Numbered from the stretch's first letter, positions 3,995-31,300 are shown. The stretch is DNA of 34,081 bases from a virus (IMGVR_UViG_3300016667_000440:1-34081), one strand, 5' to 3'. Notes: a model not told the origin generated them from the letters alone. Program-made: numbers and translations.

Positions 3995-4738
3995 ATGAGT
4001 GTAGAAGCAAAAGCGTCTAAAGTTATTTTACCAACTACTAGGATTCCTCCTAGTAGAAAATCTCCAGGAGTATTGGTAATTTATTCTAAACCAAAAGCAG
4101 GTAAAACAAGTCTAATTTCACAATTAGATAATTGTTTATTGTTAGATTTTGAGAAAGGCAGTGATTTTGTAGATGCCATGAAGGTAACTATTAATGATCT
4201 AGCTGATCTTAGATTATATGGTGAAGAAATAAAGAAAGCAGGTAAACCTTATAAGTATATTGCTGTAGATACTATTACAGCTTTAGAAGATATGGTAATG
4301 CCACTTGCTATAAAAAAGTATAAGGAAACTCCAATGGGTAAGAATTTTGATGGTGAGAGTGTTCTTAAACTACCAAACGGTGCAGGTTATCTTTATTTAA
4401 GAGAAGCATTCTTTGATGTTGTTGATTATATAAAGACATTATCACACAATACAATATTCCTAGGTCATCTAAAAGACAAGTCTATTGAAGTCAAAGGTAA
4501 AGAAGTAATGGCAGCAGATATTGATTTAACAGGTAAACTTAAGAGTTTATTGTGTTCAACTGCAGATGCTATTGGTTTCTTATATAGAGATGGAGATAAT
4601 ACTATATTAAATTTCAATAGTAGTGATCTAATTACTTGTGGTGCTAGACCAGAACATTTGAGAAATCAAGAAGTTGTTATGGCTACCATGAAGAACAATA
4701 AATTAGAAACTTATTGGGATAAAATCTATATTGATTAA
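3995..4738 (+). CDS. AAA_24 / Sak4-like P-loop ATPase (putative single-strand annealing recombinase)
   Basis: Walker A YSKPKAGKTS, LLLDFEKG, Walker B IAVDT, GAGY, FLGH and ADAIG. Lies directly upstream of an SSB gene, as is typical for Sak4. Confidence 0.85.
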   Translation: MSVEAKASKVILPTTRIPPSRKSPGVLVIYSKPKAGKTSLISQLDNCLLLDFEKGSDFVDAMKVTINDLADLRLYGEEIKKAGKPYKYIAVDTITALEDMVMPLAIKKYKETPMGKNFDGESVLKLPNGAGYLYLREAFFDVVDYIKTLSHNTIFLGHLKDKSIEVKGKEVMAADIDLTGKLKSLLCSTADAIGFLYRDGDNTILNFNSSDLITCGARPEHLRNQEVVMATMKNNKLETYWDKIYID

Positions 4739-4800: not shown

Positions 4801-5340
4801 ATGAGCAATATCACATTTAATTTCAGCGACGTTCAATCAAGTTCAAGTGTAAAACCTACTATTAAGCCAGGTGTTAATGAGAATGTAACAATAGGAACTG
4901 TTACATCTGAAACTACACCAAATGGTAAAGCAATCTTGCGTGTACCATTTAGTTTAGATAATGGTGCAGAACTTAATATTGATATGTCTATGGAAGGTAA
5001 TGCTCCTCAATATACTATGAGGAAATTGAAACATCTAATGACTAAAGTTGTTGATGAGAATGTAGTTAATTCTGCAACAACTCTACAAGATATTAATAAG
5101 ATTCTTAGTGGTAAGAAACTAAGAATTAAATTTACAGGTGAAGAATATGTATCACAGCGTGATGGTAAAGTATATGTTAAGACTGTACTAGGTCTTCCTA
5201 ACTTTGCTGAGCCTATGACTATTACACCTGAAATGAGTGCTTTGGTTTATAATCCAAATATTGAGTATGATCTTAAGCGTGTAAATAAAGCTACTGTTGA
5301 AGCTAATGCACCTAAAGTAACTGACGATCTACCATTCTAA
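4801..5340 (+). CDS. ssb: single-stranded DNA-binding protein
   Basis: 179 aa, beta-rich, with the acidic-aromatic C-terminal tail DDLPF; located between the Sak4-like ATPase and the primase. Confidence 0.75.
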   Translation: MSNITFNFSDVQSSSSVKPTIKPGVNENVTIGTVTSETTPNGKAILRVPFSLDNGAELNIDMSMEGNAPQYTMRKLKHLMTKVVDENVVNSATTLQDINKILSGKKLRIKFTGEEYVSQRDGKVYVKTVLGLPNFAEPMTITPEMSALVYNPNIEYDLKRVNKATVEANAPKVTDDLPF

Positions 5341-8996: not shown

Positions 8997-9000
8997 TGAG

Positions 9001-9357
9001 ATGGCAACAAAGTTTGATCAAGGTAAACCTAGTTTTACTAGTATACCTCAAAAAGCTTTGTTAGAAGTAGCAAAAGGTTTTACTGTTGGATTAAATAAAT
9101 ATGGACAATTTAATTATTCTAAACGTATGCCTGTAACTAGATATTTAGATGCTTTACATAGGCATCTAAATCAATATCTAGCTTATGCTGATAAAAATGA
9201 CATTGATGAATCTGGTGTACATCATTTAGCATTAGCAACATGTAATGCAATGATGGCATTAGATGGTATCTTAACAGGTACCATAATTGATGATAGAAAT
9301 AGTACTTATAAACTAGTTAACAAAATTAATAATCAAACAGAATTAGCATTTGAATAA
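9001..9357 (+). CDS. DUF5664-like dATP/dGTP diphosphohydrolase domain protein
   Basis: KFDQGKP...G..KYG..N...RYLDALHRHL...DESGVHHLALATCN matches the family signature. ORF 8962..9357, likely start ATG 9001. Confidence 0.8.
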   Translation: MATKFDQGKPSFTSIPQKALLEVAKGFTVGLNKYGQFNYSKRMPVTRYLDALHRHLNQYLAYADKNDIDESGVHHLALATCNAMMALDGILTGTIIDDRNSTYKLVNKINNQTELAFE

Positions 9358-14006: not shown

Positions 14007-14038
14007 AAAGGGGAGCCAATAACTCCCCTTTTTATTTT
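14007..14038. terminator. intrinsic terminator between convergent operons, possibly bidirectional
   Basis: AAAGGGGAG-ccaataa-CTCCCCTTT followed by TTATTTT on the + strand; the A-rich 5' side gives a weaker U-tract on the - strand. Sits between the stops at 14002 (+) and 14037 (-). Confidence 0.88.
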
Positions 14039-17000
14039 AATATTCATTATTCTTATCTCTTTCAAATGGTTCAAATAGTTTTGCAAGTTGAAAACCATAT
14101 AACCATTTAAAACTATAATAAAAAAGAGGAGTATCATCTTTTTTCTTAGCTTTTTTACCTGTTTTACCAGAAAGATGAATTAATGACCTACCTTCAGCTT
14201 CACCAAAAATATCTAAGGCTTCATCAAAAGTATTACCAAGGGTGCTATAAAATTCATCAGCTAAACCCATAAGAGGGATAGGATTTTTAAATAAAGCATA
14301 CCAGTCAGCAGGATTGATTATACCAACTAACTCTCTACGATATCTATTAAGAGTTCTATAAAGTTCTCGCGTGGCTAAGTTTTTTTTATAGTACTTCTCA
14401 TCATCATCACCTCCACCTGCTAACATAGATAATAATGTATATATACCTATAATAAATCTTAATTCTGTAGCAAGAGCTTTTATTTGACCTTGTTTATATT
14501 CTAAAAAATCTTCAAATCTATAGGTACCATTAGCAACTGCAGGTATATTAGGATTTTGTAATTTATAATGTTCAAAAGCTACTCTAGCTCTATGTTCATT
14601 AACTTGATATCTTAAAGGTGATGTTGCTGACATTTTGTCAAAAAATCCACCAAATGTAACTATTTCAAAACTAAGTTTAGCTACACTTTGTGCTATATAA
14701 CCAAGTAATCTAAATGAAGCTTTTTCATCAGGACCTAATTGATCAGTTAAAAAAGCAGTATATCTAGCTTCAGTAATAGTACGAGTTCTAGGTGAATATC
14801 TTAAACTACTTCTATTAGAATTATTAACAAAAATATTAATAAGTCCATCATCAATACCTCTAAACCTTTCTTCAGCAAGAGCAGGTAACCAACCTCTAAA
14901 AGCCATAGCTAACTTACCAAACATAGTAGTATTAAATGCATTTAAATCTTCAGAGTTTATACCACCTTTAATAGTATTAACAGTAGCCATAACAGTACCT
15001 CTAAATTCAGAATATAATCTTGCACCTTCTTTAGTTAATCCATTCTTATCAAGAATACCATCTATAATAAGATCATCACCTTCAATTCTAGCTGTATCTA
15101 ATAAACTTTTATAAGTACCAGCTTCTCTATCTTTTTTAGTTAATCTTGTTAATTGTCCATTAAGAATAGTATAATTTTGTAACATACTATACATTACTTG
15201 TTCATCAACATGTTCATCACCTGATCTAAAAGCAGCTAATAAAGTATCATAATTTATTAGTTTAGCAACTTTATTTTTAGATGAAAATTCTTTAGCAACA
15301 TCAGTACCACGTTTATTTGCATAAGGTTGAAAAAAGTTAGCTAAAGCAAAGTATAATTCTTTATTTCTAAATCTATCGTTTAAAGATTTTCTAAACTGTT
15401 GTTTAGTATAAAAATAACCTTTTTCAGCTTCAAATAAAGCATTAGTTCTAGCACCAGCTAAGTTAACTGTAGCTGATTTAAAACTAAGTGCTAATTGTTT
15501 TAATTGTTGATAATTTTTACCTTTTAAAAGTAATTGACCAAGTTCATTACCTTGAGCAGACATACCATATAAATGAAAATCTACTAATTGTTCAAATGTT
15601 TTAGATTCATCACTTTGTTTAGATTTCTCTCTATTAGGAGTATTAACACCACTAATTGATTTAGTAGTACCATCACTAGTAGTTTCAACAACACCTTTTG
15701 TAGCTAATATTTCTTTTAAAGCTTCCATATTAGCTTCAATCTGTTTAAGATTGTTATAATTATAAGCCATCTCAGCAAATAAAACTACACTTTTAGATAA
15801 GTCAAAAGATTTTAAACTATTATCTATATTTCCTTGTTGATTAATAATAGGATTAATAAATAATCTAGGTATTTGTCTTTTAGCTAAACCAGTTTCAGGA
15901 TCTATTTCAGTACGAATTGTCATAGTATCTTGTCTATACGTTGTAACATTTTCTTGAATAGACATCATTTCTTTAAACTTTTCTATTGAAAGTGTAAAGT
16001 TACCTGTTAAATATTGTTCTACTAAATCAGCTTTAATATTAGGAATAAAGTTATTTGGTATTTTATTATATGGTAAATCTAAAAGTATTCTAAATTCTTC
16101 CATACTATCATTCCAAAAATTATAGTAATCTAATAATGGTTTATTATTTTTAATCTTTAAAAAATCAGGATTAAAATCAGATTCAGATAAAGTACTTTCA
16201 TCAACTTCTTGATAAATATACCAATAATCACTATACTTTACTTTATTGTTTACATTATCAGGATTATTTTCTTTCATCCAGTCATCAAGTATTGAACTAT
16301 TATCTTGATCAGCAACACTTATTGAGTTAATAGCCATAAACTTAAGTTTACGTTCTTCATAAATTTCTTTATAATTATCTTTAAACTTAAGATGTTTTTT
16401 TAAAAAAGCACTATCTTTTGAATCTCTAGCAATTTTAAGTTTATCATAAAACTCTGCTTTTATTTTAGTATGTAAATTACCAGTTTTTTCATTTACTAAT
16501 AACTTATATACACTAAAACCAGGCATTCCATTAGCTTGACCCCACTTTTGTATTTCTTCATCAAACTTTTTAAGTTTTTTAGAAAATGATTGTACAGACA
16601 ATCTTGTGTTATCATTAGCTCTACTTATTTTATTATAAGCTTCTTTAAATATAGTATTATTAATACCACTAAACTTTCTAAAAAGTTTATCCCACCAACT
16701 TATGCTTTTATCTCCTTTAAGAAGTTCTTGTTGATCAGCACTTAAATTTCTATCAATAAGTTTTTGTTGTAATATTTTTGCTAAAGCATCAGTCTTACCA
16801 CCTAATACATTAATTGCATTAATATATTCTATTTTTTTAGCATCTGATAAGCTAGGAAGAGTTTTAAGAAACTCTGAAGAACTTGCTGCAATACTTTTAA
16901 ATATAGCAATATCTGCTTTTAAATCAAGAATTTTATCATTACTTAAATACTCAGGACTATTAGGATTATCAATATCTTTAGTAATATTATTAAAATCATC

Positions 17001-18224
17001 TAAATAATTTTTAACAATGCTTTCATATTCTTTTTTTACATATTCAAAATCTTTAGATAACATTAATTGACTAATACTAGTATTTAAATTTCTAATTCTA
17101 GTCATAAGTTTTTTATACTCAGGAGAACTTTGTACAAGTTCTTGAGCACGTTTAGTTAAGTTATTTCTAAGAATTAAAGCATCTTCTAAACTTTGATTTA
17201 ATGTTTCACTACCAGTATCTTCTAATATAAGAGGGATTTGTTGTAAAAATTCATTTGCACCAGTACCAATTTTAATACTTTTTATCTTACCAGTAAGTGT
17301 TTGACCTGGTTTTTTAGTAGTATCTGTTTTAACTTTACTTTGAAGATTCATTTGAATAGGAGCAACTCTAGCAAATCTATAATTTTTAACACCTAAAGTT
17401 TTACCCATTTCCATAAGTAATGGTATCTGAGCATTAAAATCTTCCATCTTATAATCAGGAATCCAATTAGGATCTGTAATTCTTCCTGCTTTAACAGAAG
17501 ATGGTTTAGGAGTAATAGTTTTCCAATCTATAAGACCACCAGTTTTATCTGAAAAAACAACATGAACGTCAGCAGTACCACCTATATTTTTAAGTTTATT
17601 AAATAGAGTAGCTTCAACTTGTAATAAAGCTTTACCATTAGGATTTATTTTTTTCTGAGTATCAATAATAAATTTAATATTATTTTCAATTTCTTTAAAT
17701 AAATTATCCCAATCAGTATTAGAAGGCAATCCTAATTCTTGTTGAATAGTTGCTAAAGACTTAACTTTATTTTTATCATAAATAGATTCTAATATGTTTG
17801 TAGAATCATTAGCAATTAAAAACTTAAATATATCTTCTATTGCTTTATGAACTTTAGTACCAGCATTAGCTTTAATTTCATTATCAGGAAGTTTATTTTC
17901 ATCAGCAGCAGTACCAGCACCTCGTCTTCTACTATATCTAGCTTTAGCAATATCTGTAGTTCTACCTTTAAATGCTAGTTCTTTAGTATCTAACCACACA
18001 TAACGCATAGTTTTACCACTAGGATCTAAATGATATCCTTTAGTTAATTGTGTATTATCTACTAACTCAGTAGTTAACTTATCTTGTATTACTTTAAGCC
18101 TATTAAAAACATCTTGTACACTTTCATTAGGATCAGATGATAACCAATTACTTGTTATCTTATTATTAACAGCATCTCTAACTTCAGCAATTGTTGTTTT
18201 ATTTGGATCTATTGAACAACTCAT
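14037..18224 (-). CDS. large virion cargo/ejection-type protein with an N-terminal PD-(D/E)XK nuclease domain
   Basis: 1395 aa. AGTKVH...E..L....GGTADV....LIDWKT nuclease motifs, a long helical body and a hydrophobic segment FIIGIYTLLSMLAGG near the C-terminus. Located in the giant-gene block with the virion RNAP. Confidence 0.7.
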   Translation of the reverse strand: MSCSIDPNKTTIAEVRDAVNNKITSNWLSSDPNESVQDVFNRLKVIQDKLTTELVDNTQLTKGYHLDPSGKTMRYVWLDTKELAFKGRTTDIAKARYSRRRGAGTAADENKLPDNEIKANAGTKVHKAIEDIFKFLIANDSTNILESIYDKNKVKSLATIQQELGLPSNTDWDNLFKEIENNIKFIIDTQKKINPNGKALLQVEATLFNKLKNIGGTADVHVVFSDKTGGLIDWKTITPKPSSVKAGRITDPNWIPDYKMEDFNAQIPLLMEMGKTLGVKNYRFARVAPIQMNLQSKVKTDTTKKPGQTLTGKIKSIKIGTGANEFLQQIPLILEDTGSETLNQSLEDALILRNNLTKRAQELVQSSPEYKKLMTRIRNLNTSISQLMLSKDFEYVKKEYESIVKNYLDDFNNITKDIDNPNSPEYLSNDKILDLKADIAIFKSIAASSSEFLKTLPSLSDAKKIEYINAINVLGGKTDALAKILQQKLIDRNLSADQQELLKGDKSISWWDKLFRKFSGINNTIFKEAYNKISRANDNTRLSVQSFSKKLKKFDEEIQKWGQANGMPGFSVYKLLVNEKTGNLHTKIKAEFYDKLKIARDSKDSAFLKKHLKFKDNYKEIYEERKLKFMAINSISVADQDNSSILDDWMKENNPDNVNNKVKYSDYWYIYQEVDESTLSESDFNPDFLKIKNNKPLLDYYNFWNDSMEEFRILLDLPYNKIPNNFIPNIKADLVEQYLTGNFTLSIEKFKEMMSIQENVTTYRQDTMTIRTEIDPETGLAKRQIPRLFINPIINQQGNIDNSLKSFDLSKSVVLFAEMAYNYNNLKQIEANMEALKEILATKGVVETTSDGTTKSISGVNTPNREKSKQSDESKTFEQLVDFHLYGMSAQGNELGQLLLKGKNYQQLKQLALSFKSATVNLAGARTNALFEAEKGYFYTKQQFRKSLNDRFRNKELYFALANFFQPYANKRGTDVAKEFSSKNKVAKLINYDTLLAAFRSGDEHVDEQVMYSMLQNYTILNGQLTRLTKKDREAGTYKSLLDTARIEGDDLIIDGILDKNGLTKEGARLYSEFRGTVMATVNTIKGGINSEDLNAFNTTMFGKLAMAFRGWLPALAEERFRGIDDGLINIFVNNSNRSSLRYSPRTRTITEARYTAFLTDQLGPDEKASFRLLGYIAQSVAKLSFEIVTFGGFFDKMSATSPLRYQVNEHRARVAFEHYKLQNPNIPAVANGTYRFEDFLEYKQGQIKALATELRFIIGIYTLLSMLAGGGDDDEKYYKKNLATRELYRTLNRYRRELVGIINPADWYALFKNPIPLMGLADEFYSTLGNTFDEALDIFGEAEGRSLIHLSGKTGKKAKKKDDTPLFYYSFKWLYGFQLAKLFEPFERDKNNEY

Positions 18225-18451
18225 TTTATATATTCTGATTTATTTGATTTATTTATTTCATTTCTAGATTTAGTTCTATTAATACAAAATCTAACTCTTC
18301 TATTATCAAGTATCCATATCTCACCATTATCTAAAGCAACAGTAAAATAAAGATAATCTTCTTCATGTGTTTCATTAACTAAAAATGCATATCCCTCAGC
18401 ATCAAACTCAGGGATATACACAGGTATTGTTGGATTTAATTGTAATAACAT
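18221..18451 (-). CDS. small conserved phage hypothetical protein
   Basis: 76 aa, overlapping both neighbours. MLLQLNPxIPV...G.A.L....E....F.VALD.GEIW...N..VR...N.T..R resembles a recurring small phage family (from recall). Confidence 0.7.
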   Translation of the reverse strand: MLLQLNPTIPVYIPEFDAEGYAFLVNETHEEDYLYFTVALDNGEIWILDNRRVRFCINRTKSRNEINKSNKSEYIK

Positions 18452-20076
18452 TATTCACATTTAATTGGTATAGTACCATCATTTACTAAACTGTTAAAAG
18501 CTCTAGTTTCATCACTAGACATATCTACTCCAATATCAGTAGCTGTATCTCCAACATTGCCTACAAATGATTTAAATCCTTCTATAGTAGGATTAGTTGT
18601 TGTATCAAGATATTGAGAGTATAGTTGTAGAGCTTGTTGTTTTTGTTGTGGGGTTATAAATAAATCTGCTAAGTAACCACTAGTACTTATTACTTTATTT
18701 GTAGGAACTTTAGCTACTGTAGCATCTATATCAGATTTCCAATCTTCAAATCCATAAGTAGCACCTCTCTCATCAAACCTTCTTTTAAACTCTGCTTTGG
18801 GTATGGTAATTACTTTATCAAAATCTGACATTCTTTCTTTAAGAATATTAGTATTTGATACAAATAAAATCTTACCTTCTCTTTGAGCCTGTACTTTTAA
18901 TCTATCATAAAGATTAAGCATAAACTCATTATACTCTTTAGGTTTTCTACCTTTATATTCTTGTCTAGTTTCAGAACCTCTATTAGCATCTACAAAAGCA
19001 TTGACTTCATTTTTATAATCATCATCAAGAGTTATAAATCTTCCCTCACCTTGTTTCTTTAAAAAGCTTTTACCAATAGTAGGATGCCCAAATACTACTT
19101 TATCATTAGGAGTAATCATTTGATTAAACCCTAAAGCTTCATACACAGCATTAGCTAATTCAGGATTAGATTCAAATAGTTCTGATACACCTGGTTTAAC
19201 ACTATAACCATATCTTTTTTCTATAACTTTAGTAGTAGCGTTGATTATTTCATCTAAAGCAGAATAATCTTTATTTACAAATCCTAATTTTTCTAAAATG
19301 CCGTTTATTATTTTAACAAATTCTTCATAAACACTTGATTTTTTACCTCCTTTATACCCAGATAGTGTAACATTTTTAAGCTTTGCTTGAAAATTAGGAT
19401 TAGTCATTCCCTCTGTATAAAATTCCCACCATCCTATAACACCATATTCATTTTTAAATTCAGGTAAAGTTTTTACATAATCAAATAAAGTAATTAATTC
19501 TGTTCTAAATTCCTGTTCTTCATTAATAACTGTATCTAACAAACTATGTAAAAATTCATGAAGTTTATATCTAGAAGGTTCAGTTGTTGATTTAGAATTA
19601 AAAATAACGGTTGGTTTTTCAAAAAGTTCCCTTTCATTAAGTCCTATAATATTTCCTTGATATTTATCATTTATTACAAAATCAAAACTATTTAATTTAT
19701 TTAAATCTATAGAAAGTAAAAAACTTTTTAATTTTTTTTCAAAATCATTTACAGGAATAATGCTTTCTAAAAATTGTTTAGCTGTTACTTTATTACCTTC
19801 TTTTTTAAGATTTATTATTTCTTGTTCAGAAAGTGTTTTGCCAAAATCAGAATAATCTGCAAAACTTCTTTTAGACTCAAATAGTTTTGCTATTCCTGGT
19901 TTAACACTAGTTATAGGAGAAATACCCAACTCTTGTAAAGTTGGGTATCTATCATATATTTCATTCTCAGTCATCCATTTAGAAACCATCATAGCAAACA
20001 CGCCTTGTTTCTGTCCACTTTCAGCTAGTAGCTTTTGGAATTCAGGATTACTAATTGTTATACAAAATATAGCCAT
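18451..20076 (-). CDS. polyvalent protein: zincin-like metallopeptidase plus P-loop kinase-like domain
   Basis: HEFLH at 19546-19560 with a downstream EFYTEGMTNPNF; GHPTIGKS at 19066-19089; repeated SVKPGxxxLFES segments. Confidence 0.75.
   Translation of the reverse strand: MAIFCITISNPEFQKLLAESGQKQGVFAMMVSKWMTENEIYDRYPTLQELGISPITSVKPGIAKLFESKRSFADYSDFGKTLSEQEIINLKKEGNKVTAKQFLESIIPVNDFEKKLKSFLLSIDLNKLNSFDFVINDKYQGNIIGLNERELFEKPTVIFNSKSTTEPSRYKLHEFLHSLLDTVINEEQEFRTELITLFDYVKTLPEFKNEYGVIGWWEFYTEGMTNPNFQAKLKNVTLSGYKGGKKSSVYEEFVKIINGILEKLGFVNKDYSALDEIINATTKVIEKRYGYSVKPGVSELFESNPELANAVYEALGFNQMITPNDKVVFGHPTIGKSFLKKQGEGRFITLDDDYKNEVNAFVDANRGSETRQEYKGRKPKEYNEFMLNLYDRLKVQAQREGKILFVSNTNILKERMSDFDKVITIPKAEFKRRFDERGATYGFEDWKSDIDATVAKVPTNKVISTSGYLADLFITPQQKQQALQLYSQYLDTTTNPTIEGFKSFVGNVGDTATDIGVDMSSDETRAFNSLVNDGTIPIKCE
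19166..19909. repeat. 39 bp imperfect direct repeat pair (19166-19204 and 19871-19909) flanking the zincin domain
   Basis: ttagattcaaatagttctgatacacctggtttaacacta vs ttagactcaaatagttttgctattcctggtttaacacta, 34/39 identical and in frame. Confidence 0.9.
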
Positions 20077-20486
20077 TAGTGTAGATTTTCGAGTTTGTAC
20101 ACAACATGAGCAAATTGCTCAAGTATATTATCAATCATTTGTTGTATATAACCTTCAGTAACTTTAGTTCTCATAGACTCAATCTTAGCCATTTCTTTCT
20201 TAATATAAGAAATAGGTTCTACATTATTAGTAATATTCATACTAGTGTAGTTCATCATAAGACCAGTCTTAACAAAACTCTTTTCTACTAAATCATCATT
20301 AAGATCAGCTAGTGATGAGTAGAATGCACCAAGAGCTTCATGCATTGCAAATGATTTATCTCTTGCTTGTAAATGTACTATATGCATTTGAATTTCAACT
20401 TCAAATAAGCATTGTGATATAGCTTGCACAGCAGCTTTAGTTGAACCAGCAGGTTCCATTTGACTTCCTTTTAGTTTAGGTAACAT
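20076..20486 (-). CDS. ferritin/Dps-like four-helix protein (DUF5856-like)
   Basis: HIVHLQ...SFAMHEALGAFY..L.DL.D.LVE...MIDNI......YKL matches phage Dps/ferritin-like proteins. Confidence 0.8.
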   Translation of the reverse strand: MLPKLKGSQMEPAGSTKAAVQAISQCLFEVEIQMHIVHLQARDKSFAMHEALGAFYSSLADLNDDLVEKSFVKTGLMMNYTSMNITNNVEPISYIKKEMAKIESMRTKVTEGYIQQMIDNILEQFAHVVYKLENLH

Positions 20487-20506
20487 AATATTTTATATTT
20501 ATTTAT

Positions 20507-23500
20507 TTAACAATTAATCATAAATTTAATTGCTTTTTCTTTATCAATTAGTAACATTGTATTTAATTGATCTATAGCATCTTTTTCAGATTCAGCACCA
20601 TACTTAGCTATCATTTTATCTAATATAGTAAATTTTAGTTCATCTGAAAAACCTTTAAGATTATAAAATGTATCAGCTTGTGGTGTAGTTTGTAATCTAG
20701 GATTAGAACTACTAATAGATTTACCTAACTGTTGTTCTACATGTTTACCAATTATATCTACAAACTCATTTGCTAATTCATTACTAAGTTGAGCAAATCT
20801 TTTTTCTACAGCAACTGTTCTTCTATTTGCTATAATAATATCATCTCGATTTATTTTACTTAACTCTTTTGCTAAAGGTCTTAAAGCATCTAATCTTTTC
20901 TTGTCTTCTTCAGTAAGAAAATCAAACTCATTTAAATTTAAATCTGCTAATATCATTATATTATCAGCAACTTGATCTATAGATGTTTTAAAAGCATTTA
21001 ATCTACCTTTTGGTCTAGGACCTTCACGAAAATCATTTGATAAAATTACTTTAGCATTTCCATAAGCATCTAATCTTTCATTAAGTCCTTCTATAGGTGT
21101 AAAAGTATTATCAGAAACATCAGCTTGTGGTTGAGTATTAGGTAATAATTTATCAAAGTTTTCATTAAACACAATGTTAAATGGAATAGGTCCAGCAGAA
21201 CTAAACATGTCTGCCATTTCTTTTCCTGTATATCCATTTAGATTGCTTTCAGAATAATCAGACACTAAAAACTCTTTTTCTGGATTTTGCTTAGCATATT
21301 CATATAAACCTTTAATTTCTTCTATAATTTCTTGAGGAGTACTAGATTTTTTTACATCATAATATTTTTTAGTTACAATACCATAAGATTTTCCTTGAAT
21401 TCCTCTAGGTTTTCCTTGTATTGCTCCAAATCTTTCTTTAGCTAATTTAGCAGCTCCTGCTCCATGAGTAGGAGCACCACCTTTAGAACTACCTATATTT
21501 GAGCCAAATACAAATATTTGATTATCTTTTAAAGTAGTTATTTTTCCAGAGTATGTTTTTCTAGTAGTACTTACACTAGCTTGTGGTTGAGTAGGTGTAG
21601 TAGATTGAGTAGATCGAGCAGGTTTAGTAGGTTTATTAACTGATTGTTTAATTGCATTTTTTATTTCATAAACTAAATCCTTAAACTTACTTATATCTTG
21701 AGTATAATCCATACCATCATATCCACCTATTGGATTTATAATTTCATCTGTTACAGTATTTACTAACTTTATTTTACCATTAGTATATCTAAAAGTTCTA
21801 AATATTTTAAACGGATTAATTTCTTCCTCATTTGGATTATATAAATCTTCATCAGGATTATATGAAGTATCTTCATTATCTGGAGCAGGAGCAAAATCAT
21901 CTGGATCAAAAGGTGATTCATTCTCAACACCTCCCATATCAGCTAATACTTCTAAAGCTTCATTTTCAAGTTCTTCTTCTCTAAGTTTACTAAAATAACC
22001 ACCAATTTTATTTTTATATACTTTCTCATTAAATGAATTACTTAGCATAAATTTAACAGTAAAATCTGCTAATTTCTCATCAGTAATTGATTTAGGATCT
22101 AAATTAACTAACGCCTCCAGGATATTTTTTTGTGCTTCATAAGATATTACTTTAGAGTATTGATAAGTACCATTACTAATACCTGATTGAAATATATTAA
22201 AAATTACTAAATCATTATATAAACTTGGATTAAGACTTTTTAATTCTTGATAAGCTTCAATTAAACTGTTTGATTCACCTACAGTTAATTGAGTTAAAAA
22301 TATTTTTAAATTATCAATTGCTATATCTCTTTCAACATTATTACCTATTTTCTTATTTAATATTGGTACTAAGTTTTGAATAATAGGATTGTTTATATAT
22401 TTTTCATCATATTTAATATCTTGAATCTTCCTAGGAAGGCTATTATTACCTGTAAATAATTTATTAAATCTATCTTTAAATTTACCTGATTCATTTTGTA
22501 TTAAATAAGTAATTAAACTTTCATCAAACTTTTGTATTGCTTTTTTCTTTTCTTCATTTGTAAATATATGAGAAAATAAATTAAGTTTTATTTGGTTTAA
22601 TTTTTCTTTAACAATTTTATTTTGTCTAGTAATATATAGTTTACCAAATACATCACTGATAGATTGTCTACTATTAACAAATGGAGCTAATAATGTTTCA
22701 TTTAAAAGTTTTTCTACATCTTCTTGAGGTACAATACCCTCATCAGACATAACCTCTGCATATAAGTTAATAGTAACATCATCTACTTCAGAAGGACTTT
22801 TTAGATACCTTGTATCAGCAGAAATTAAATCTTTAACTTTAGTTATTGCTTTAGCTTGATCTGAAGCTGCAATATAAGTTAAAAGATTACTCATTTCATC
22901 TTTACTATATTTTGTTCTTAAAAAATCTAGTATTAGTTTATTTGAAGATAATCCAGGATAAGCATTTGTTGATAAAGCACGTCTAGCATTTTTTATTTTT
23001 AAATACTGTACAACAATTGGAGAATCTATAATATCAATAATACTTTGAGTTGGAGTACCTCTACTTACTAAATAACAAACAGTATTTAAAGTACTAAGAC
23101 ATATATTAACAAACGCAGCATAATCATCTTTAACAATATCTACTTGACTAGTCATTAAAGCACTATATATATTTTCTACTTCTTCTTTTAAATCAGTAGT
23201 AGTAGTATTAGCTAATTGTATATAATTACCAACTTGTGTATTATTAATACCAGGTATATTTAATTTAGCACTAGATTTAAGTCTAATATTATATCTTTCA
23301 GCAATATTTTGAAATGTAATCCAAGTAGCAATAATACCTACACCTTTTTTACCACCAGTAAAGTTTAAAACTGCATCAACTAAAGCATCAAGTTGAAACA
23401 TATTAATACCAGGCTTGTTGGCTATTTTTAAGTTAGCCTTTTGTTTATTTTTAGCAATTTGTTTAAAACTACCTTCAATTACAGGAGTTAAGAATCTTTT

Positions 23501-26500
23501 AGCTCTAGCAGGATGAAGTAGTAATTTTAATTCTATATCAAGAAGTCTATTTTCATGAGCTTGTTTTGGATTAAGATCACTAATATCTACTTGATTAAAT
23601 TGATCTCTATAAGAGTCTTTAATAGTTTCTCTATTAATATATAATAATTCTAGTATATCTTTTTTCTGAGCATTAATATCAGTTTTTCTTTGCTTACTTT
23701 GTTTATCATATAATAAGATATTATCAATAACTGTTTGTATATATCTTACATCTTCAAACAATTGTTTTTTTGTTTTATCTAATTCTTCAAAGTTTTCAAT
23801 ATAAGTTTTAGCTTCTTTAGCTTCACTTCTAGTTTTTCTATATACTTTATCTAAATACTTACTTATTTCTATAGCTCTATCACGCTTTTCTTTTCTAGCT
23901 TTATTAAGTGCATCAAAAGCATCTTTAATGTTATTTGTTTTAGAACCAGTAATATTTTCTACAAAATTATAAAACTGTTTAAATTCTTCTTTAACATTTA
24001 ATTTATTAGCTAATTCTTGTTCTTTAATATCAACTAAATCTTCAACTAATGCTGAATAATCTTGATCATTATCTAAAACTTCTTTACCTATAGTATTATA
24101 AAACCAATTATCAAATAAGTTTTCTTTATTATATTCATATTGATAAGGTTTATTACTATCATTTAAGTTAGGCATATAGATAGTTAATTTATCAATATCA
24201 TAATCCGATCCATTTTTTACAATAAACTCACTAGGAACTAATATTGTTTGATTATAGATAGGATTTAACCATCTCCTTACTCTGAGTACATCTGTACTAG
24301 ATAATTGCTGATGTGGAATCCTAAGTGCCTTTATCATAGGTACATCATCAAGATTACCTGACTCAAACTTTTGATCTAACTCAGCATTTAAAATATCTAA
24401 TAGTTTATTAATATTTCTACCAGCTTGTGGATATTGTTGAAATAACTTATCTATATCTTTAGGATTTAAAGGCATTGCACATTCTGCAGGTATTAATTCT
24501 AATACATTACCATTCTCATCAAGTATAGGTTGGTAATACTTTAAATAACTACCTGCTGTAAACTTACCATCAAGTACTTGTCTACTAGCACTTTCCCATC
24601 CAGTACTAGGAGCTTGTGGTAACATAGTACCATTTCTTTTTAATATAAGAATATTGTTAGTAATAATACTAGTTAAGATATATTGTACTTTGTTATAATT
24701 AGGTAATGATTCAATTGGTTTTAAGTTTTCATCAGAATCTAACCAATTTACAATAGCATCTAAAATATTATCTGGAGTACCTCTTTCAACAGCAGCATCT
24801 TTAATAAGATTAACAAATCCTATAGGATCAGTTATATTATTAGCATTATCTATTTTATACTCATCAAATAAAGTATTAGTTAATTTATTAACATAATCAC
24901 TAATTGCTTGATCTTTTTCTTCTAAAAGATTAAATAAATCAGATTGTTGTCTTTGTTCTTCATAAGATAAACTATCCCATTGTTCTACAATACCATTAAA
25001 ATCAATAGGTAACTCACCATCTAACATAATACCAGCATTCTCATTCTTTCTAGCCTGAGTAGCATCAACTATTTTATCTTTAGTTTCATAAGCAATTTCT
25101 TGTTGCTTACCCATATATCTAAAATCTAATACACCTCTTTCATTATCTTCAATAGCAAGTGTATTAAATCCAACAGTATATTGACCATCTTCTGTTTTTA
25201 TAGTATTATAAAAATCTCTAGAAGTAGCAGCACCAAATTTAGCTGCAGAACTAAAATGTATAACATCTATACCATTTTCTAGCATAAAGTTATTAAGTTG
25301 TTCTAATACAGTACCTCTAACCATACTAGGCATTAAAAATCCATAAGATGTTTTTCTACCTGCAACAACTCCTATTCTATCTTGCCAATTACCATCAGTA
25401 CCTTCTGCAATATAATCTTCTCTACTTTTTTGATAGTTAGGACCTACATATTGAAATTTTTGTTGTGTAAAAGGTCTTAAACTATTGTTAATATAATATT
25501 CAGCTGACATACCTTCAGGTACAGTGTATAGATTATAAAACTCTTCTTCAGTAGCACTAATTGCTTTAATTTCTTTCTTAGCTAATTCTAACCTACCAGG
25601 ATTAATACCTTCAGTTCTAAATAAAGTTTCTATAGCAAAGAATATATTACCTATACTATAACCATCTGATTCTTCAAATCCTTTAGTATAAGCTTGATAC
25701 TCAGGTGAATTTTCACCAAATAATGTTTTAAGTTCATTACCAATAGAACTTATTGTTTCAGGATCATTAATAATTAACTCATTAATGTCACCATTAAAAT
25801 CTTTTTTATATTCAAATGTTTTACCATCTAAAGTAATTTTAAAATCATTTGACTTTAAAATTGAATTTAAGAAACTATTAGTAGTATTATCAACAACAGA
25901 TACTTGTTTAGTTGATGATTGCATATTTAACCTTTTAATCATATCATAGATTAAAATACCATCTTTTGCTTTAGCACTATATAAAGCAGGATCACCAAAA
26001 AATAGTTTAGATTGTTCTACAGCACTAATAAAATGTTTAGCTGCAGCAATTTTTATAAGTTCATCATAGTTATTTTTAATAGCAGGAATACGTTTAAAAT
26101 ATTCTTCAGCTACTGCTTTATCAATACCATCACCTTTACCTGTACTATTTATTTCAGCCATTTGGGCTTTAACAACACTAGTATCAAGATAGTTATTTAC
26201 CCATTTATTAACTAACTTTTGAACATTTACATCACTTGATAAGTTATAAGTATTAAGGTTTTCTTTAAGTAACTTATCTAATATTTTATTATCATTTTCA
26301 GTTTTACCAAATAAACCATCAAATAAAACAAAGTTAACTCCTTGTTTATCCATTAAAGGTATACCTGTTTTAGTAGTTCTAACTGATTTAATTCTTTTAA
26401 GTTCAGTTCTTAAATATTGATATATATAAGTTTTAAATTTATTTTCCCAATCAGGAGCAGAATAAAATTCACCTCCATTACCTAAAATATCAGTAGAACC

Positions 26501-28381
26501 ATAAGGCATTTTAATACCAAGAAAACTACTTCTATCTGAATGTTTAACTGGTGTTAATACATTATGTAAATTACTATTAATAAATGTAGACCAAAGATCT
26601 GTTTCAACCATTGAACCTGTAGTAGTATTCTCATTTTTAGTTGTAGATTTCATACCATCTAAAAGAGAAAACTCAATATTTTCACCATCTATTAGTCTTT
26701 CAAGAATCATACTATCTGATGACCATAGATTTAATATTTCAGGAGTTTCATTTTCTAATTGTTCTAAAATTAGTTTTTTAAGTTTATTTTGATCTTTTAA
26801 TTTAGAATTATTTTTTCTAACTTTTTTAATAGTATTTTTAACTCTATTTAATAATAAAGTTTGATAACTATTTAAGTTATTTTTAGATATTCTATCACCA
26901 TTACTATTAAATAACTGACCATCATAATCTTGTCTATAAGGACTATTATGTTCTATTAAACCAACACTTAATACATATAAATCTTTATTTACTTTAGGAT
27001 TAAATAGTTCTTCAAAATCAAAGTCTTTTCTTTTTAAATTCTTTTCTAAGTTATCTATAAAATCTGATACTACATCTATAAAAGTATTATTAGCACCTTT
27101 AATAAGTATAGTATTATTAGATGCTGGTGAATCAGGATCTAATAAATCATAATTGGCTATAGGAAATTCTAATAACTCTAAAATTTCTTCAGCTTCTTTA
27201 TCTTTAATTAATTCTTTTAACTCAGATACAAAATTTTTATCAAGAAGTTTATTTAATAAACCACTTCTCCATTCATCCATCATCTTACGCTGAATACTAT
27301 TACTATCAGCATCTTGAGGTTTAATTACATAACCATTTTCACCAGGTTGTACTACATAAGTTATTAAGTTATACTTATTATTACTAAATGATTGTATAAA
27401 CTTAATCATTAAGTTAATCTTTGGTAAAGATGTTATACTATTATCTTTTAATTCAGCAATAGTATTACCTTCATCATCTGAAATAACATCAATAGCATTA
27501 AATACTTTATTATATAACCATTGTAATTCTGGAAATTGATCTTTATTATTTTCTATAACTTCTATAAAATTTTCTACTGTTGGAGTTACATTAGCAAATA
27601 AATTAGTTAATGTGTTATTAATTTCACTTTGATCCATAGCTCTAATTAATCCTAATGCATCTTCAGATTCATTAATATCATAACTAGAAAAATCTTTTAA
27701 ATCTTCAGCATTTAATAATCTAGGAACACCTGATAATAATAATTTAATACCTCTAGAAAAACTATCTTTTCTATTTTGTTCAATAGATTCTTTTATCCAA
27801 CTATCTTTAATTTGTTCTTTATTATTATTGTTTTGAGTATCTTTATCTTCATCTTCTTGATTTTCTTTAAAATTTAATACAGTACTCATATAAGTTTTAA
27901 ATTGCTCATATACTGCATTACGATGACTACCTTCTGAAGGATCAACACCTAAGTCTTCAGCTAAATTATTATTAGCATAATCTTGAGCTAAAGCAATAGA
28001 AATTTCATCATGCTGTTCTGGTAAATTATTAATAACTTTACTTAATGCTTTTTCATATACTGGTTGAAAAATTTCAGCCGCATCCATACTATCATCTAAA
28101 AGATTAGCATAGTCTTGACTATTATCTAAATCATTAACTAAAGTACTAATAAAATAATATTTTAAACTACTAAACAATTCATTTCTTTGAGCAGCATTTA
28201 ATTCTACACCTTCAAAAATAAATTTATTAAGTATATCAGGTGTTTGTTTAAGTATTTTATCAGCTTCTTTTAATGAAGGTATAACACCATTATTTCTATA
28301 ATATAAAAGATAAGCTTTATCTTCTTTATACTTAGCTTCTAAAGCTTTCCATTCATCAGTATTTATATTAGGACACGTCAT
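20507..28381 (-). CDS. crAss-like virion-packaged single-subunit double-psi-beta-barrel RNA polymerase with C-terminal accessory domains
   Basis: 2624 aa. Catalytic GSDYDIDKL (DYDID at 24191-24205) preceded by RIPHQQLSS; also FFGDP..Y, KR, DG, SAAK and KQQE motifs. Size and context match phi14:2 gp66-type RNAPs, which carry DFDID. Confidence 0.9.
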   Translation of the reverse strand: MTCPNINTDEWKALEAKYKEDKAYLLYYRNNGVIPSLKEADKILKQTPDILNKFIFEGVELNAAQRNELFSSLKYYFISTLVNDLDNSQDYANLLDDSMDAAEIFQPVYEKALSKVINNLPEQHDEISIALAQDYANNNLAEDLGVDPSEGSHRNAVYEQFKTYMSTVLNFKENQEDEDKDTQNNNNKEQIKDSWIKESIEQNRKDSFSRGIKLLLSGVPRLLNAEDLKDFSSYDINESEDALGLIRAMDQSEINNTLTNLFANVTPTVENFIEVIENNKDQFPELQWLYNKVFNAIDVISDDEGNTIAELKDNSITSLPKINLMIKFIQSFSNNKYNLITYVVQPGENGYVIKPQDADSNSIQRKMMDEWRSGLLNKLLDKNFVSELKELIKDKEAEEILELLEFPIANYDLLDPDSPASNNTILIKGANNTFIDVVSDFIDNLEKNLKRKDFDFEELFNPKVNKDLYVLSVGLIEHNSPYRQDYDGQLFNSNGDRISKNNLNSYQTLLLNRVKNTIKKVRKNNSKLKDQNKLKKLILEQLENETPEILNLWSSDSMILERLIDGENIEFSLLDGMKSTTKNENTTTGSMVETDLWSTFINSNLHNVLTPVKHSDRSSFLGIKMPYGSTDILGNGGEFYSAPDWENKFKTYIYQYLRTELKRIKSVRTTKTGIPLMDKQGVNFVLFDGLFGKTENDNKILDKLLKENLNTYNLSSDVNVQKLVNKWVNNYLDTSVVKAQMAEINSTGKGDGIDKAVAEEYFKRIPAIKNNYDELIKIAAAKHFISAVEQSKLFFGDPALYSAKAKDGILIYDMIKRLNMQSSTKQVSVVDNTTNSFLNSILKSNDFKITLDGKTFEYKKDFNGDINELIINDPETISSIGNELKTLFGENSPEYQAYTKGFEESDGYSIGNIFFAIETLFRTEGINPGRLELAKKEIKAISATEEEFYNLYTVPEGMSAEYYINNSLRPFTQQKFQYVGPNYQKSREDYIAEGTDGNWQDRIGVVAGRKTSYGFLMPSMVRGTVLEQLNNFMLENGIDVIHFSSAAKFGAATSRDFYNTIKTEDGQYTVGFNTLAIEDNERGVLDFRYMGKQQEIAYETKDKIVDATQARKNENAGIMLDGELPIDFNGIVEQWDSLSYEEQRQQSDLFNLLEEKDQAISDYVNKLTNTLFDEYKIDNANNITDPIGFVNLIKDAAVERGTPDNILDAIVNWLDSDENLKPIESLPNYNKVQYILTSIITNNILILKRNGTMLPQAPSTGWESASRQVLDGKFTAGSYLKYYQPILDENGNVLELIPAECAMPLNPKDIDKLFQQYPQAGRNINKLLDILNAELDQKFESGNLDDVPMIKALRIPHQQLSSTDVLRVRRWLNPIYNQTILVPSEFIVKNGSDYDIDKLTIYMPNLNDSNKPYQYEYNKENLFDNWFYNTIGKEVLDNDQDYSALVEDLVDIKEQELANKLNVKEEFKQFYNFVENITGSKTNNIKDAFDALNKARKEKRDRAIEISKYLDKVYRKTRSEAKEAKTYIENFEELDKTKKQLFEDVRYIQTVIDNILLYDKQSKQRKTDINAQKKDILELLYINRETIKDSYRDQFNQVDISDLNPKQAHENRLLDIELKLLLHPARAKRFLTPVIEGSFKQIAKNKQKANLKIANKPGINMFQLDALVDAVLNFTGGKKGVGIIATWITFQNIAERYNIRLKSSAKLNIPGINNTQVGNYIQLANTTTTDLKEEVENIYSALMTSQVDIVKDDYAAFVNICLSTLNTVCYLVSRGTPTQSIIDIIDSPIVVQYLKIKNARRALSTNAYPGLSSNKLILDFLRTKYSKDEMSNLLTYIAASDQAKAITKVKDLISADTRYLKSPSEVDDVTINLYAEVMSDEGIVPQEDVEKLLNETLLAPFVNSRQSISDVFGKLYITRQNKIVKEKLNQIKLNLFSHIFTNEEKKKAIQKFDESLITYLIQNESGKFKDRFNKLFTGNNSLPRKIQDIKYDEKYINNPIIQNLVPILNKKIGNNVERDIAIDNLKIFLTQLTVGESNSLIEAYQELKSLNPSLYNDLVIFNIFQSGISNGTYQYSKVISYEAQKNILEALVNLDPKSITDEKLADFTVKFMLSNSFNEKVYKNKIGGYFSKLREEELENEALEVLADMGGVENESPFDPDDFAPAPDNEDTSYNPDEDLYNPNEEEINPFKIFRTFRYTNGKIKLVNTVTDEIINPIGGYDGMDYTQDISKFKDLVYEIKNAIKQSVNKPTKPARSTQSTTPTQPQASVSTTRKTYSGKITTLKDNQIFVFGSNIGSSKGGAPTHGAGAAKLAKERFGAIQGKPRGIQGKSYGIVTKKYYDVKKSSTPQEIIEEIKGLYEYAKQNPEKEFLVSDYSESNLNGYTGKEMADMFSSAGPIPFNIVFNENFDKLLPNTQPQADVSDNTFTPIEGLNERLDAYGNAKVILSNDFREGPRPKGRLNAFKTSIDQVADNIMILADLNLNEFDFLTEEDKKRLDALRPLAKELSKINRDDIIIANRRTVAVEKRFAQLSNELANEFVDIIGKHVEQQLGKSISSSNPRLQTTPQADTFYNLKGFSDELKFTILDKMIAKYGAESEKDAIDQLNTMLLIDKEKAIKFMINC
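20672..21593. repeat. three short direct repeats encoding TQPQA-type linkers in the RNAP C-terminus
   Basis: agcttgtggttgagta is exact at 21578-21593 and 21122-21137; atcagcttgtggt is exact at 21119-21131 and 20672-20684. Confidence 0.88.
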
Positions 28382-28397
28382 ATTAAAATTTTATTTA

Positions 28398-31300
28398 TTA
28401 CTCTGTACTTTTGTTTTTATTTAATTTAGTAGGTTTAGATGCAGGTGCTAATATATCATCATTTATATCAGTATTAGTAGTTGTCTGTTTTGATTTAAAA
28501 CCAAAATGTGCCATTCCTTGTGCCATATCTTTTGCATAAGCTTCCATTTCTTCTTCAGTCATTTCACCAGCAGTTCTTTTTTTACCAGTACTTTTTTTAC
28601 TACTACTTTTTTTACCACTACCTGTTTTACAATTTTCTTGTTGTTCTTTAGCTTTTTCAGTAGTTGTTTCAGCTGCTTGATTACTAGTTTTTGTAGTTTT
28701 ACCTTTACTAGCAGTTTTTTTACCTTTATATGTTTTTTTCTCAGGTTTTGCTAAAGGTTGATCTGCTATAAAAGTATTTTTAGTTTTTATTAAACCATCA
28801 TTATCTGTTTTTAATATAACATTTTTTGAAGCAAATAATATATCTTCAGACTTAGTTTTTGAATCAGCAGTTTCTAAAGGTTCTGATACAGCATTTGTAG
28901 TTAATATTGGATCACTTGCTTTACCTCCATTAAACAAATAAGAAAGATATCCTCCTTTTATTTGTTCCCAAGATATCTCATTTGTAGTTCTATTTAAATA
29001 AGGTTTATAATAAACTCCTCCTCTACCAGCAGCTGTTTGCAACATTGCTGTAGGTATATTAATTCTTTTAGTAGCTAAGAAAGCAATAAGATTTCTACGT
29101 TCTACACTATCTTTTCCTAAATTAGCAATAGTTACAGAAGTAAATATATTGTTATTGTTAGGATCAGGAAAATGTACTTTACCACCTTGGATATAAATAC
29201 TATTTTTATTTAACTTACCTTTACCACTTTTAGTAGCATTTTTAGGTACTCCCCAATAGATAATATTATTCATTAAAGATAATCTATTAGAAGACATAAA
29301 AACAGGCAATTTACTACCTTGTTTTTTATCATAATAATACTCACCTGTTTCAGAATTATTTATATTAACAAATAAATCTTGTAAAGCACTATCTTTATTA
29401 CTACCATACTTTTGAATAATATGTAATATTAAATCAATTTCATCACTATTTACAAATCTTTGTGTAGCATAAAAATATTCTTTTGTTTCTTTATTGTAAA
29501 TAATAACTGAACCTATTTTAGCATTCTTAACTATAATATTACTACCTTGTAATTTTTGCATAGATTTAGTAACTACTGTTACAGTTACTTTATCTAAACC
29601 TTCCTCTGTTGAAACATCAATGCCTCTTTTATATCTAAGAACATTTCTTACAGGTTTGTAATTATTAATCTTATTACCTTTACTATCTTTATTATTAGTA
29701 GTTAATAATATACCATTAGTAACTGAATCTATAGGTAAATATACTTCACCTTCTTTTAAATCATTAATAATTTTACTAATAGATTCTTTATGTTTAGCAA
29801 TAGCAAAATTAACAATCTCTTCTCTTATTTCGAATAAAGGTACAAGATTTTCATTTTTCTTCCAACTTAAAGCACTAAATGGATCATGTTTAGTATTTAT
29901 AATAGCACTACTTGGTAATGGTCCTTCATGTTTACTATATTTCTTATAAAAATCTAATAAACCTTTCATATTGATTTTATCAATAGAACCATCTTTTTTT
30001 AAAGTACCAGCAAATAATCTATCAGATTCAGGTAAAAATGTAAATACATATCCACCATCTCCATTAAGTTTACCATTAACATCAGCTTTAATAAATGAAC
30101 CATCTTTAGTAGATACCATAGCAACTACTATAGTATTATCTGTTTCATTACCTTTTAATGCATTCTTAACAGCTTTTTTTAGATCATCAGGCATCTGATC
30201 ATCTGTTTTATAATGGAATGCTTGTAGAGTATATTCAGCTTTCTTATATGGATCTTTAATATCAGGATTCATTTCTAAGAATGAGTTCCATCTTCTAGAG
30301 TCATCATTAGAATTAAGTATAGGTTTACCATTATTATCATATAAAGTTTGGAATGTTTTAGAATCTGGTAAGTATTCCACAACTTTATTAGTTGTATAAT
30401 ATAAATTACTACTTAAAGCACCTTTGTATAAGTTAGCAGATGCTTGTTGAGTAGGAGGATTATCTTGACTAAACTTAGGATCACTTTCTTGGCTAAGAGG
30501 TATTTTAGTTGCTCTTAGTGCACGATTTAAAGCAATAGCATAATCTATTGCTATTTTATCTATATTAGCTTTTAAATTATCTACAAAAGATTCTTGTGAT
30601 TTAAATTCAATTAAATTATCAATTGTTCTTAATTCTTTATTTAATTTATCAAGATCTTGTTTAGTAAGTAATATTTCATTTTCAATACTTTGTTGTTCAG
30701 CATAATTAGCTTGAATTTCAAGTTCTTGTTGTACCTTATAATAATCTTGCATAAACCTATCATAAGCTTGATTAGGTGTTATGTTATTACGTTCAGCATA
30801 TTTATTTATACCATATTGAAATCTAGCAAATTGAGTAGGATCTTTAAATAATTTTTCAATATTATTTCCAGATACAGGATAAAATACTTTCCATTTATTA
30901 GTAAACCAAGCAGGCATATCTGCTTGTTTAGTACCAACTACAAAGTTTTTATAAGCAACTGATTTAGCTTTTAGAGCTTCAAGAAAATCTATTTTTCTAT
31001 TTAATATCTGAATTCTATTTTCAACACTTTGTTTTAATTCATTTAAATTATCTAAAGCTTCATTATAATCAGTCATGTCAGCTAATGTTTCTAAATCTTC
31101 AACAAGACTTAAACCCATTACTCTATCTATATTATCTATAAATCCACTTTCTAAAGTATTTAAAAATTGTCTAATAGAAAAGTTTTCTTTTTCTAAAGAC
31201 TCTTTAATTAAATCAATTAAATCATTAACTTCTTGTTTTTGTCTATTAATAGCATTAATAGATTTATTAATTCTTTCTATTGATTTATTACAAACTTCTA

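Follow-up and report, generated by a model that had tools for sequence, protein, structure and literature searches.

The window analysed here is the whole of a 34,081-nucleotide stretch of viral DNA (IMGVR_UViG_3300016667_000440:1-34081). Its minus strand encodes a giant RNA polymerase that ends in a tail divided by short repeated linkers. The gene and the parts of its tail are listed below.

20507..28381, minus strand: giant crAss-type RNA polymerase of 2624 aa, with homology to phi14:2 gp66 and a variable tail from about aa 2260
24191..24205, minus strand: catalytic-type DYDID motif at aa 1393-1397, identified as a sequence motif
21572..21593, minus strand: linker 1 (TQPQASV), with 5 mismatches to the 21-bp family motif described below; a junction in contigs of X3 and X5
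21137..21574, minus strand: cassette 1, of the A1S_2505 family (NF049995, E 1.3e-25; phrog_2072)
21116..21137, minus strand: linker 2 (TQPQADV), with 6 mismatches to the 21-bp family motif
20690..21118, minus strand: cassette 2, a conserved helical-bundle domain without known family (31 cluster representatives; model pLDDT 93)
20670..20690, minus strand: linker 3 (TTPQAD), a junction in X5 and the start of the block shared with locus L094
20507..20671, minus strand: terminal module of 55 aa with a Cys end, likewise exchanged between lineages

The protein belongs with the crAss-like virion RNA polymerases on the basis of both its DxDxD motif and its homology to gp66. Residues 1010-1454 match phi14:2 gp66 in tblastn searches (E 3e-6, 23.8% identity), and the crAss002 RNAP gives a weaker match (E 7e-4, tblastn). 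HMM searches of PDB sequences with the window polymerase returned nothing relevant. According to the available text of 10.1101/2020.03.07.982082, gp66 has a DFDID motif and is translocated with the DNA. By analogy with gp66 (10.1101/2020.03.07.982082) and with crAss001 (PMC10172136), we infer that the polymerase, tail included, is packaged in the virion and translocated into the host.

The first-pass annotation had described three in-frame linkers conserved as exact 16-bp and 13-bp pairs, and these are located as claimed. Their core sequences begin at aa 2264 (TQPQASVS), aa 2416 (TQPQADVS) and aa 2565 (TTPQADTF). The 16-bp pair lies at 21578-21593 and 21122-21137, spaced by 456 bp, and the 13-bp pair at 21119-21131 and 20672-20684, spaced by 447 bp; both are in frame and the repeats are in direct orientation. 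The same annotation had split the tail into two unrelated domains of about 145 aa and a short terminal module. As cut here, the cassettes measure 146 and 143 aa and are followed by 55 aa, and the two show no relation to each other (hhalign probability 0.25%). Judged from the window alone, the linker repeats are modest evidence: codon shuffles of the tail produced a repeat of at least 16 bp in 8 of 1000 cases and one of at least 13 bp in 153 of 1000, and the sharing of all codons by the two TQPQA copies has P = 0.13 under the codon usage of the polymerase gene. The DNA-level conservation of the linkers is established through comparison with relatives, not through the window. A fourth copy of the 10-mer shared by the linkers (24611-24620) was discarded, as it merely encodes PQA codons within the polymerase core. 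Separately, a linker-like CTACTCAACAA (PTQQAS) with one mismatch occurs at 30444-30454 on the minus strand, at the upstream 1890-aa gene, and may be due to chance.

Cassette 1 scores 89.8 bits against NF049995, for which the cut-off is 45, and has no Pfam match. It is homologous to DUF7831 (hhalign 93.75%, E 1.8e-7); in the ESM Atlas it retrieves its own family, with DUF7831 as the nearest Pfam family (0.90). When compared with eight Macro sequences, it aligned colinearly over 116 columns at a level that is not significant (hhalign probability 1.4%, E 0.038), and the NADAR and cassette 2 controls gave short alignments only. Cassette 1 may have a Macro-like fold. Comparisons with T4 Tk.4 and with E. 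coli YmdB, each taken singly, were not significant, the single-sequence fold model was unusable (pLDDT 39), and PDB sequence searches returned designed helical repeats or nothing.

The cassette also occurs well beyond the close relatives of the window. Protein P0015 carries it at 98.6% identity over 141 aa, while the two polymerases are just 28-34% identical, and the stretch that they have in common includes linker 1. A search among longer proteins returned 122 matches, of which the best 62 were inspected; TQP-type flanks surround the cassette in many of these best 62 and are absent in some, mainly the more distant ones. Proteins bearing cassette 1 also contain ART-PolyVal domains (P0077, P0096) and 2OG-Fe(II) domains. 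By analogy with the NADAR, SLOG and ART domains that neighbour it in this slot, cassette 1 is predicted to bind or process ADP-ribose-type molecules.

Cassette 2 has no match in Pfam, NCBIfam or PADLOC and no usable match in the ESM Atlas. Its 31 representatives are found in polymerase tails and in other giant cargo proteins. The model is mostly helical and confident (pLDDT 93, pTM 0.86). A search of BFVD gave no match at E <= 0.001, and the best VIA-align result (Z 7.2, rmsd 3.0, 87 aligned) retrieved only generic helical bundles, which indicate neither a function nor a new fold. We predict that cassette 2 is a binding module rather than an enzyme.

The terminal module has a history distinct from that of the polymerase core. 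It is 82-84% identical to its counterparts in P0011 and P0053, whose core is about 44% identical, and only 60-65% identical to those in P0002, P0040 and P0042, despite a core identity of about 90%. The module itself has moved between lineages. A metagenome scan with an alignment of the module returned at least one locus. A short helical match to AbiEii (PADLOC, E 8e-4, 45 aa) was set aside.

It is the comparison of close relatives that decides the question of exchange in the tail. The polymerase-core search recovered 39 proteins, and cluster look-ups for eight of these yielded 23 members. Four proteins that share 92.7-98.1% identity over the 480 aa preceding the slot (P0001, P0002, P0040, P0042) have variable stretches of 320, 175, 513 and 23 aa, respectively; among these stretches one pair alone matches, and weakly (26%). 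Three others, 100% identical over the same 480 aa (P0011, P0053, P0054), contain DUF7831, nothing and NADAR, respectively. A third group at 97-99% identity (P0008, P0049, P0050, P0051) contains a DUF7831-like domain, nothing, nothing and an A1S_2505-like domain. In the empty alleles P0013, P0042 and P0053, the left half of linker 1 runs directly into the terminal module. Domains found in the slot among polymerase relatives comprise NADAR, DUF7831, cpYpsA SLOG and helicase. Linkers are degenerate in P0005, P0006 and P0010, and a recognisable linker is not kept in every relative.

Contigs from public sequencing runs, compared for 8 of the 21 listed runs and used as evidence only for the parts that they cover, contain junctions at the same positions. 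One is record 7 of X5 (3597 bp), in which 21578 is joined directly to 20674; 903 bp are skipped and 10 letters fit both sides. Compared with the window, this contig has 23 differences over 21578-22100 and, over 19871-20674, 56 differences plus 3 gaps; at least 255 letters lie on each side of the join. Record 13 of X3 differs from the window at a single position in the 256 bp that lead to 21578, continues with 392 other bases and rejoins at 20684, and record 29 of X8 links 21626 to 20684 through 47 other bases. X1 holds the whole stretch as one contig with no differences and no such joint, and it is possibly the source of the window and so not independent. These junctions are alleles of related phages, not deletions in the window phage. 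A joint of 20674 to 21578 in X4 had been considered as such a deletion and was rejected, as one side consists of just 34 letters and the record has a loose end that belongs to another lineage.

The main prediction of the first-pass annotation, that domain content would change at the linkers, is supported by these observations. Tail content varies among relatives that are 93-100% identical just upstream, with junctions at the linkers. Its second check also came out in favour, as both cassettes are present in further host proteins and TQP-type flanks often accompany them there. A precise repeat-to-repeat join, for which it had suggested looking, exists between linker 1 and linker 3 in one public contig (X5 record 7). 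We are very confident that the joints are where cassettes are exchanged.

TQPQA is only a small part of a much wider family of joints. The family motif is 21 bp long and codes TQPSTSV, and the linkers in the window are variants of it; one variant, ACTCAACCATCTACTAGTGTT, was seen in L093 and L096. The first 20 bases of ACTCAACCATCTACTAGTGTT retrieved 45 viral loci, and all 45 encode TQPSTSV in frame within long or edge-open ORFs. A DxDxD motif lies within the fetched stretch at 22 of these 45 loci, several of which are duplicates. When viral contigs were scanned with the 15-mer of the window itself, nearly all of the 92 loci were chance matches. L071, which is the L094 contig, was the single clear relative, and L025 was a further tail in a long ORF. 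A locus search with a single protein returned no relative.

Codon counts indicate that the motif is fixed as DNA. A scan that left third positions free found 108 loci in 86 distinct contexts; 41 were dropped for GC content of at least 40% or a short ORF, and 45 AT-rich, long-ORF cases were kept, one of which (L150) looks unrelated. The same six codons are used in 39 of the 45, where local codon usage predicts 4.6%; GTT is the seventh codon in 44 of the 45 (46% expected). These loci have common ancestry and are largely the same contigs as the 20-mer matches, and the counts do not represent independent events. Among 23 TQP linkers of these ORFs that had not been selected by pattern, 12 start with the nine bases ACTCAACCA, compared with 14.7% expected. 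The linker peptide varies (TQPQA, TQPSTSV, TQSST, AQPSTSV) while the silent sites stay fixed, and out-of-register hybrid joints (TQPSTQP) also occur. At the level of sequence, these comparisons show a joint conserved at synonymous sites across distant phages.

The joints also mark the limits of exchanged DNA. A comparison of 44 sequences yielded 29 segments, 150-1500 bp long and at least 85% identical, that otherwise unlike loci have in common, and 35 of their 65 distinct ends fall at a linker. When only ends away from the selected 20-mer are considered, 14 of 44 lie at another linker by a strict rule, versus 0.6% at random (1.3% locally). Of the remaining 30, some lie within ordinary conserved genes, some at joints too degenerate or too short (half joints) for the rule, and one is a true exception. 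The exception is L095, in which a 375-bp domain lies inside a SLOG domain without a linker (~14671-15045); the same domain is linker-flanked in L123. Joints are not obligatory, therefore, as this domain was inserted without one. The 14/44 count replaces an earlier breakpoint count (42 of 58 ends versus 6%), which was inflated by having chosen the loci for the motif.

Downstream of the polymerase lie two further genes that take part in the pattern.

20076..20486, minus strand: conserved small gene (DUF5856, phrog_858), within an exchanged block bounded by joints
18451..20076, minus strand: second slot gene of 541 aa, with constant ends and a variable middle by comparison with relatives
19895..19911, minus strand: joint 1 of the 541-aa gene (TSVKPG), the right half of a TQPSTSV-K motif, where record 11 of X6 departs from the window
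19190..19204, minus strand: joint 2 of the 541-aa gene (SVKPG), which opens a cassette found elsewhere, in other phages, after linkers of the TQPSTSV type

Four relatives of the 541-aa gene each have a different middle. In the window, we take this middle to be a HEFLH zincin-like module followed by a carrier module with a P-loop insert. The two SVKPG joints are 705 bp apart, and record 11 of X6 contains the first module in another context with 30 differences in 741 bp. The carrier module (ELFESNPELA ... QQKQQA; 18602-19189, minus strand) itself contains a nested slot, which in the sequences compared holds four different inserts of 137-341 aa between conserved arms that are unrelated to the joints; the insert in the window contains a P-loop-like motif. 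A larger unit of 788 bp (19897-20684) spans the terminal module and the DUF5856 gene and extends into the beginning of the 541-aa gene; its limits are linker 3 and the first TSVKPG joint. This block is 92.8% identical to L094, although the polymerase DNA of L094 is 66-71% identical (polymerases ~44%), and it is 84% identical to the closer relative L093. These comparisons show the joint in use in the second gene as well. In L093 (16741-19203), the DUF5856 gene is fused with the slot gene in an 820-aa ORF, and blastn skips the intervening stretch relative to the window.

Two genes on the plus strand are relevant to the question of which proteins may carry out the exchange.

3995..4738, plus strand: Sak4-like ATPase, a candidate annealing protein (PF13479, E 1e-26; phrog_124, E 7e-29)
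4801..5340, plus strand: possible SSB with an acidic DDLPF end, judged from its sequence ending

The first-pass annotation had allowed for a Sak4-like ATPase and an SSB as possible recombination proteins and for no other dedicated recombinase. The former is confirmed as a Sak4-like gene (phrog_124), while the SSB call was not upheld by any family match; the acidic DDLPF end is an SSB trait. The window also encodes a RusA-like resolvase. The first-pass statement that there is no dedicated recombinase agrees with the absence of tyrosine, serine and IS110 recombinases (PF00589, PF00239, PF02371) from all five related records searched, four of which are at least 90% complete; the window itself is a fragment. 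The PF00589 search recovered 14 of 14 controls. ERF and Rad52 were found in 0/5 of the related records and AAA_24 in 3/5. G002 (locus L096), a complete relative with terminal repeats that carries the 21-mer and a cassette, has no match to AAA_24, ERF, Rad52 or the Sak4-like protein of the window.

Comparison of relatives shows slot variation, junctions at joints and near-identical cassettes that have moved between distant phages. We think it probable that domains are gained, lost or exchanged at the coding joint by homology-driven crossover between co-infecting genomes. In-frame replacement of the tail would take two crossovers, the first at a joint and the other either at a further joint or in downstream DNA that is conserved. 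If two copies of the joint on a single genome recombined, the slot would be emptied. Pairing could be performed by a phage annealing protein, for which the Sak4-like protein is the candidate here, or by host RecA. Two effects would keep the joint fixed: cassettes bearing it have many recipients open to them, and it is copied in each exchange. The exchanged domains would be carried into the host together with the polymerase, to act early in counter-defence or in manipulation of the host; this role is predicted because the slot neighbours include NADAR and SLOG, because of the roles proposed for such domains (PMC9503650, available text) and because of the translocation of gp66.

Homology-driven crossover is favoured because the joints are degenerate, with half-joints and out-of-register hybrids used, because a three-gene block of 788 bp was exchanged between two unlike joints, because the nested slot uses a second, unrelated type of homology arm and because none of the five records contains PF00589, PF00239 or PF02371. 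Some observations weigh against it. The joints offer just 10-21 bp of identity, and the minimum for Red- or RecA-dependent recombination is about 30 bp, with RecET acting on 5-13 bp only at ~1e-8 (PMC2327257, available text). G002 lacks a detectable annealing protein, and near-total fixation of synonymous sites would also be expected from sequence-specific recognition. The 21-bp motif could accordingly be the site of a site-specific recombinase, whether encoded by the phage and so far unrecognised or supplied by the host, that inserts and excises domains in frame in the manner of an integron. Such an enzyme would account for the fixation of third positions, seen in 39 of 45 cases among phages that are very distant from one another, for common segments that often begin two bases before the motif and for the complete relative without a detectable annealing protein. 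AAC and GTT triplets are present in integron core sites and in the XerD arm of dif, and the motif resembles these in having both; their 11-nt spacing here matches neither site. Given that the working joints of the window are 5-6 mismatches off the motif, that half-joints and hybrids are in use, that the three-gene block moved between unlike joints and that no tyrosine, serine or IS110 recombinase occurs in the five records (4 at least 90% complete), we regard a site-specific enzyme as unlikely. We hold the same doubt about a broader proposal, that the joint is the site of a dedicated, unrecognised recombination system of environmental crAss-like phages, an integron inside coding sequence drawing on a common domain pool; if this were true, cassette 2 would be a new class of counter-defence binder.

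Selection might instead act on the linker as a peptide (a flexible spacer, an aid to unfolding on the way through the tail, or a protease site), with domains landing by illegitimate recombination at the one place that tolerates them and DNA identity hitch-hiking with cassettes that spread recently. The linker is indeed rich in Thr, Gln, Pro and Ser, the codon identity within the window is unremarkable (P = 0.13) and the L095 insertion lacks a linker. In the available texts, ejection needs partial unfolding of cargo proteins (PMC10172136) and cleavage of fused cargo polyproteins has been proposed (10.1101/2020.03.07.982082). This explanation is quite improbable, since identical codons stand before many cassettes that are unrelated to one another, a pattern that hitch-hiking with a single cassette would not produce, the peptide is free to vary while silent sites are fixed, and a 10-bp overlap lies on both sides of the join between linkers 1 and 3. 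A peptide role may exist in addition to the DNA role of the joint. Finally, every record is a metagenome assembly and the comparisons used contigs, not raw reads, and the variable tails could in principle be chimeras assembled at repeats. The usual assembly word is 31, longer than the joints of 10-21 bp. Empty or replaced slots recur across sources (JGI, ENA, Logan) and across runs from separate studies, and X1 spans the stretch as one contig without differences, although it may be the source and not independent. We consider assembly chimeras very improbable.

Crossover at short conserved DNA has precedents in phage mosaicism, in which joints include lambdoid boundary sequences, T4-type PeSL repeats and the His-box joints of T-even tail fibres. 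Joints of that kind lie between genes or are limited to receptor-binding proteins, whereas the present joint is coding and recurs in several cargo genes across phages whose polymerases are about 30% identical. Integrons contain cassettes bounded by repeats, and the R64 shufflon alters a protein C-terminus in frame through repeat-bounded segments. The tail cassettes are likewise bounded by repeats, but no cognate recombinase was found in the five related records, the repeats are direct and degenerate, and the cassettes are domains rather than genes. By the features tested (absence of PF00589 and PF00239, in-frame domains, direct repeats), the system is neither an integron nor a shufflon. As in mosaicism joints and Red-driven homeologous recombination (PMC2327257, available text), short conserved DNA would permit unrelated modules to be exchanged by homology.

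A close parallel is with polyvalent proteins (Iyer et al. 2017, PMC5512222), which are large, probably injected and accrete varied effector domains. Variable and unrelated effector-type domains, a criterion for that class, are present among the polymerase relatives. The polymerase probably works like a polyvalent injected protein, with presumed delivery to the host and with a conserved joint in its coding sequence at which domains are swapped. For one polyvalent system, the available text of PMC5512222 considers that recombination might generate variability; the differences here are that a DNA-fixed, in-frame joint marks the exchanges and that the host protein is a virion polymerase. Gp66 of phi14:2 and the crAss001 cargo proteins resemble the window polymerase in the DxDxD motif, detectable homology and a place between two other giant genes. 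The window protein has in addition ~360 residues in a variable slot, and no exchangeable tail is described in the available texts on those phages (10.1101/2020.03.07.982082, PMC10172136). The slot domains NADAR and cpYpsA SLOG also correspond to viral NAD+/ADP-ribose counter-defence domains (Macro, NADAR, SLOG), for which virion packaging and counter-defence have been predicted (PMC9503650, available text). Those are typically standalone in DNA viruses, in contrast to the in-frame cassettes on the polymerase (PMC9503650). The words "linker" and "crAss" do not occur in the main text of PMC5512222 or in the available text of PMC10684548, nor "linker" or "repeat" in that of PMC7886860. The DNA joint was not described in the published literature searched, which covered articles without their supplements, where domain-architecture tables may be held.

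These findings would provide a concrete DNA-level mechanism for building and rebuilding polyvalent injected proteins, for which earlier work described domain accretion only. Exchange of tails would let phages reshuffle a predicted toolkit of injected counter-defence proteins. The joint can serve as a search handle, as domains downstream of it are predicted to be delivered in the first minutes of infection, including those without a family such as cassette 2. It also makes testable the long-standing question of whether short conserved joints drive phage mosaicism.

Several other features of the window and its relatives were recorded. A RecD/Pif1-like helicase adjoins cassette 1 relatives in many large proteins (P0073-P0145), and the gut phage cr50_1 has a 67% DNA match inside a gene annotated as a helicase. 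The window encodes a dATP/dGTP pyrophosphohydrolase-like gene (8962-9357, plus strand; phrog_801, E 1e-24) and a 1395-aa protein (14037-18224, minus strand) that is exonuclease-like over residues 108-260 (phrog_298, E 7e-6). Cys residues lie at or near both ends of the polymerase (20507-20520, 28370-28381) and of the 541-aa protein (18451-18465), and near the start of the 1395-aa protein (18215-18224). Most relatives likewise have a Cys at or near the end.
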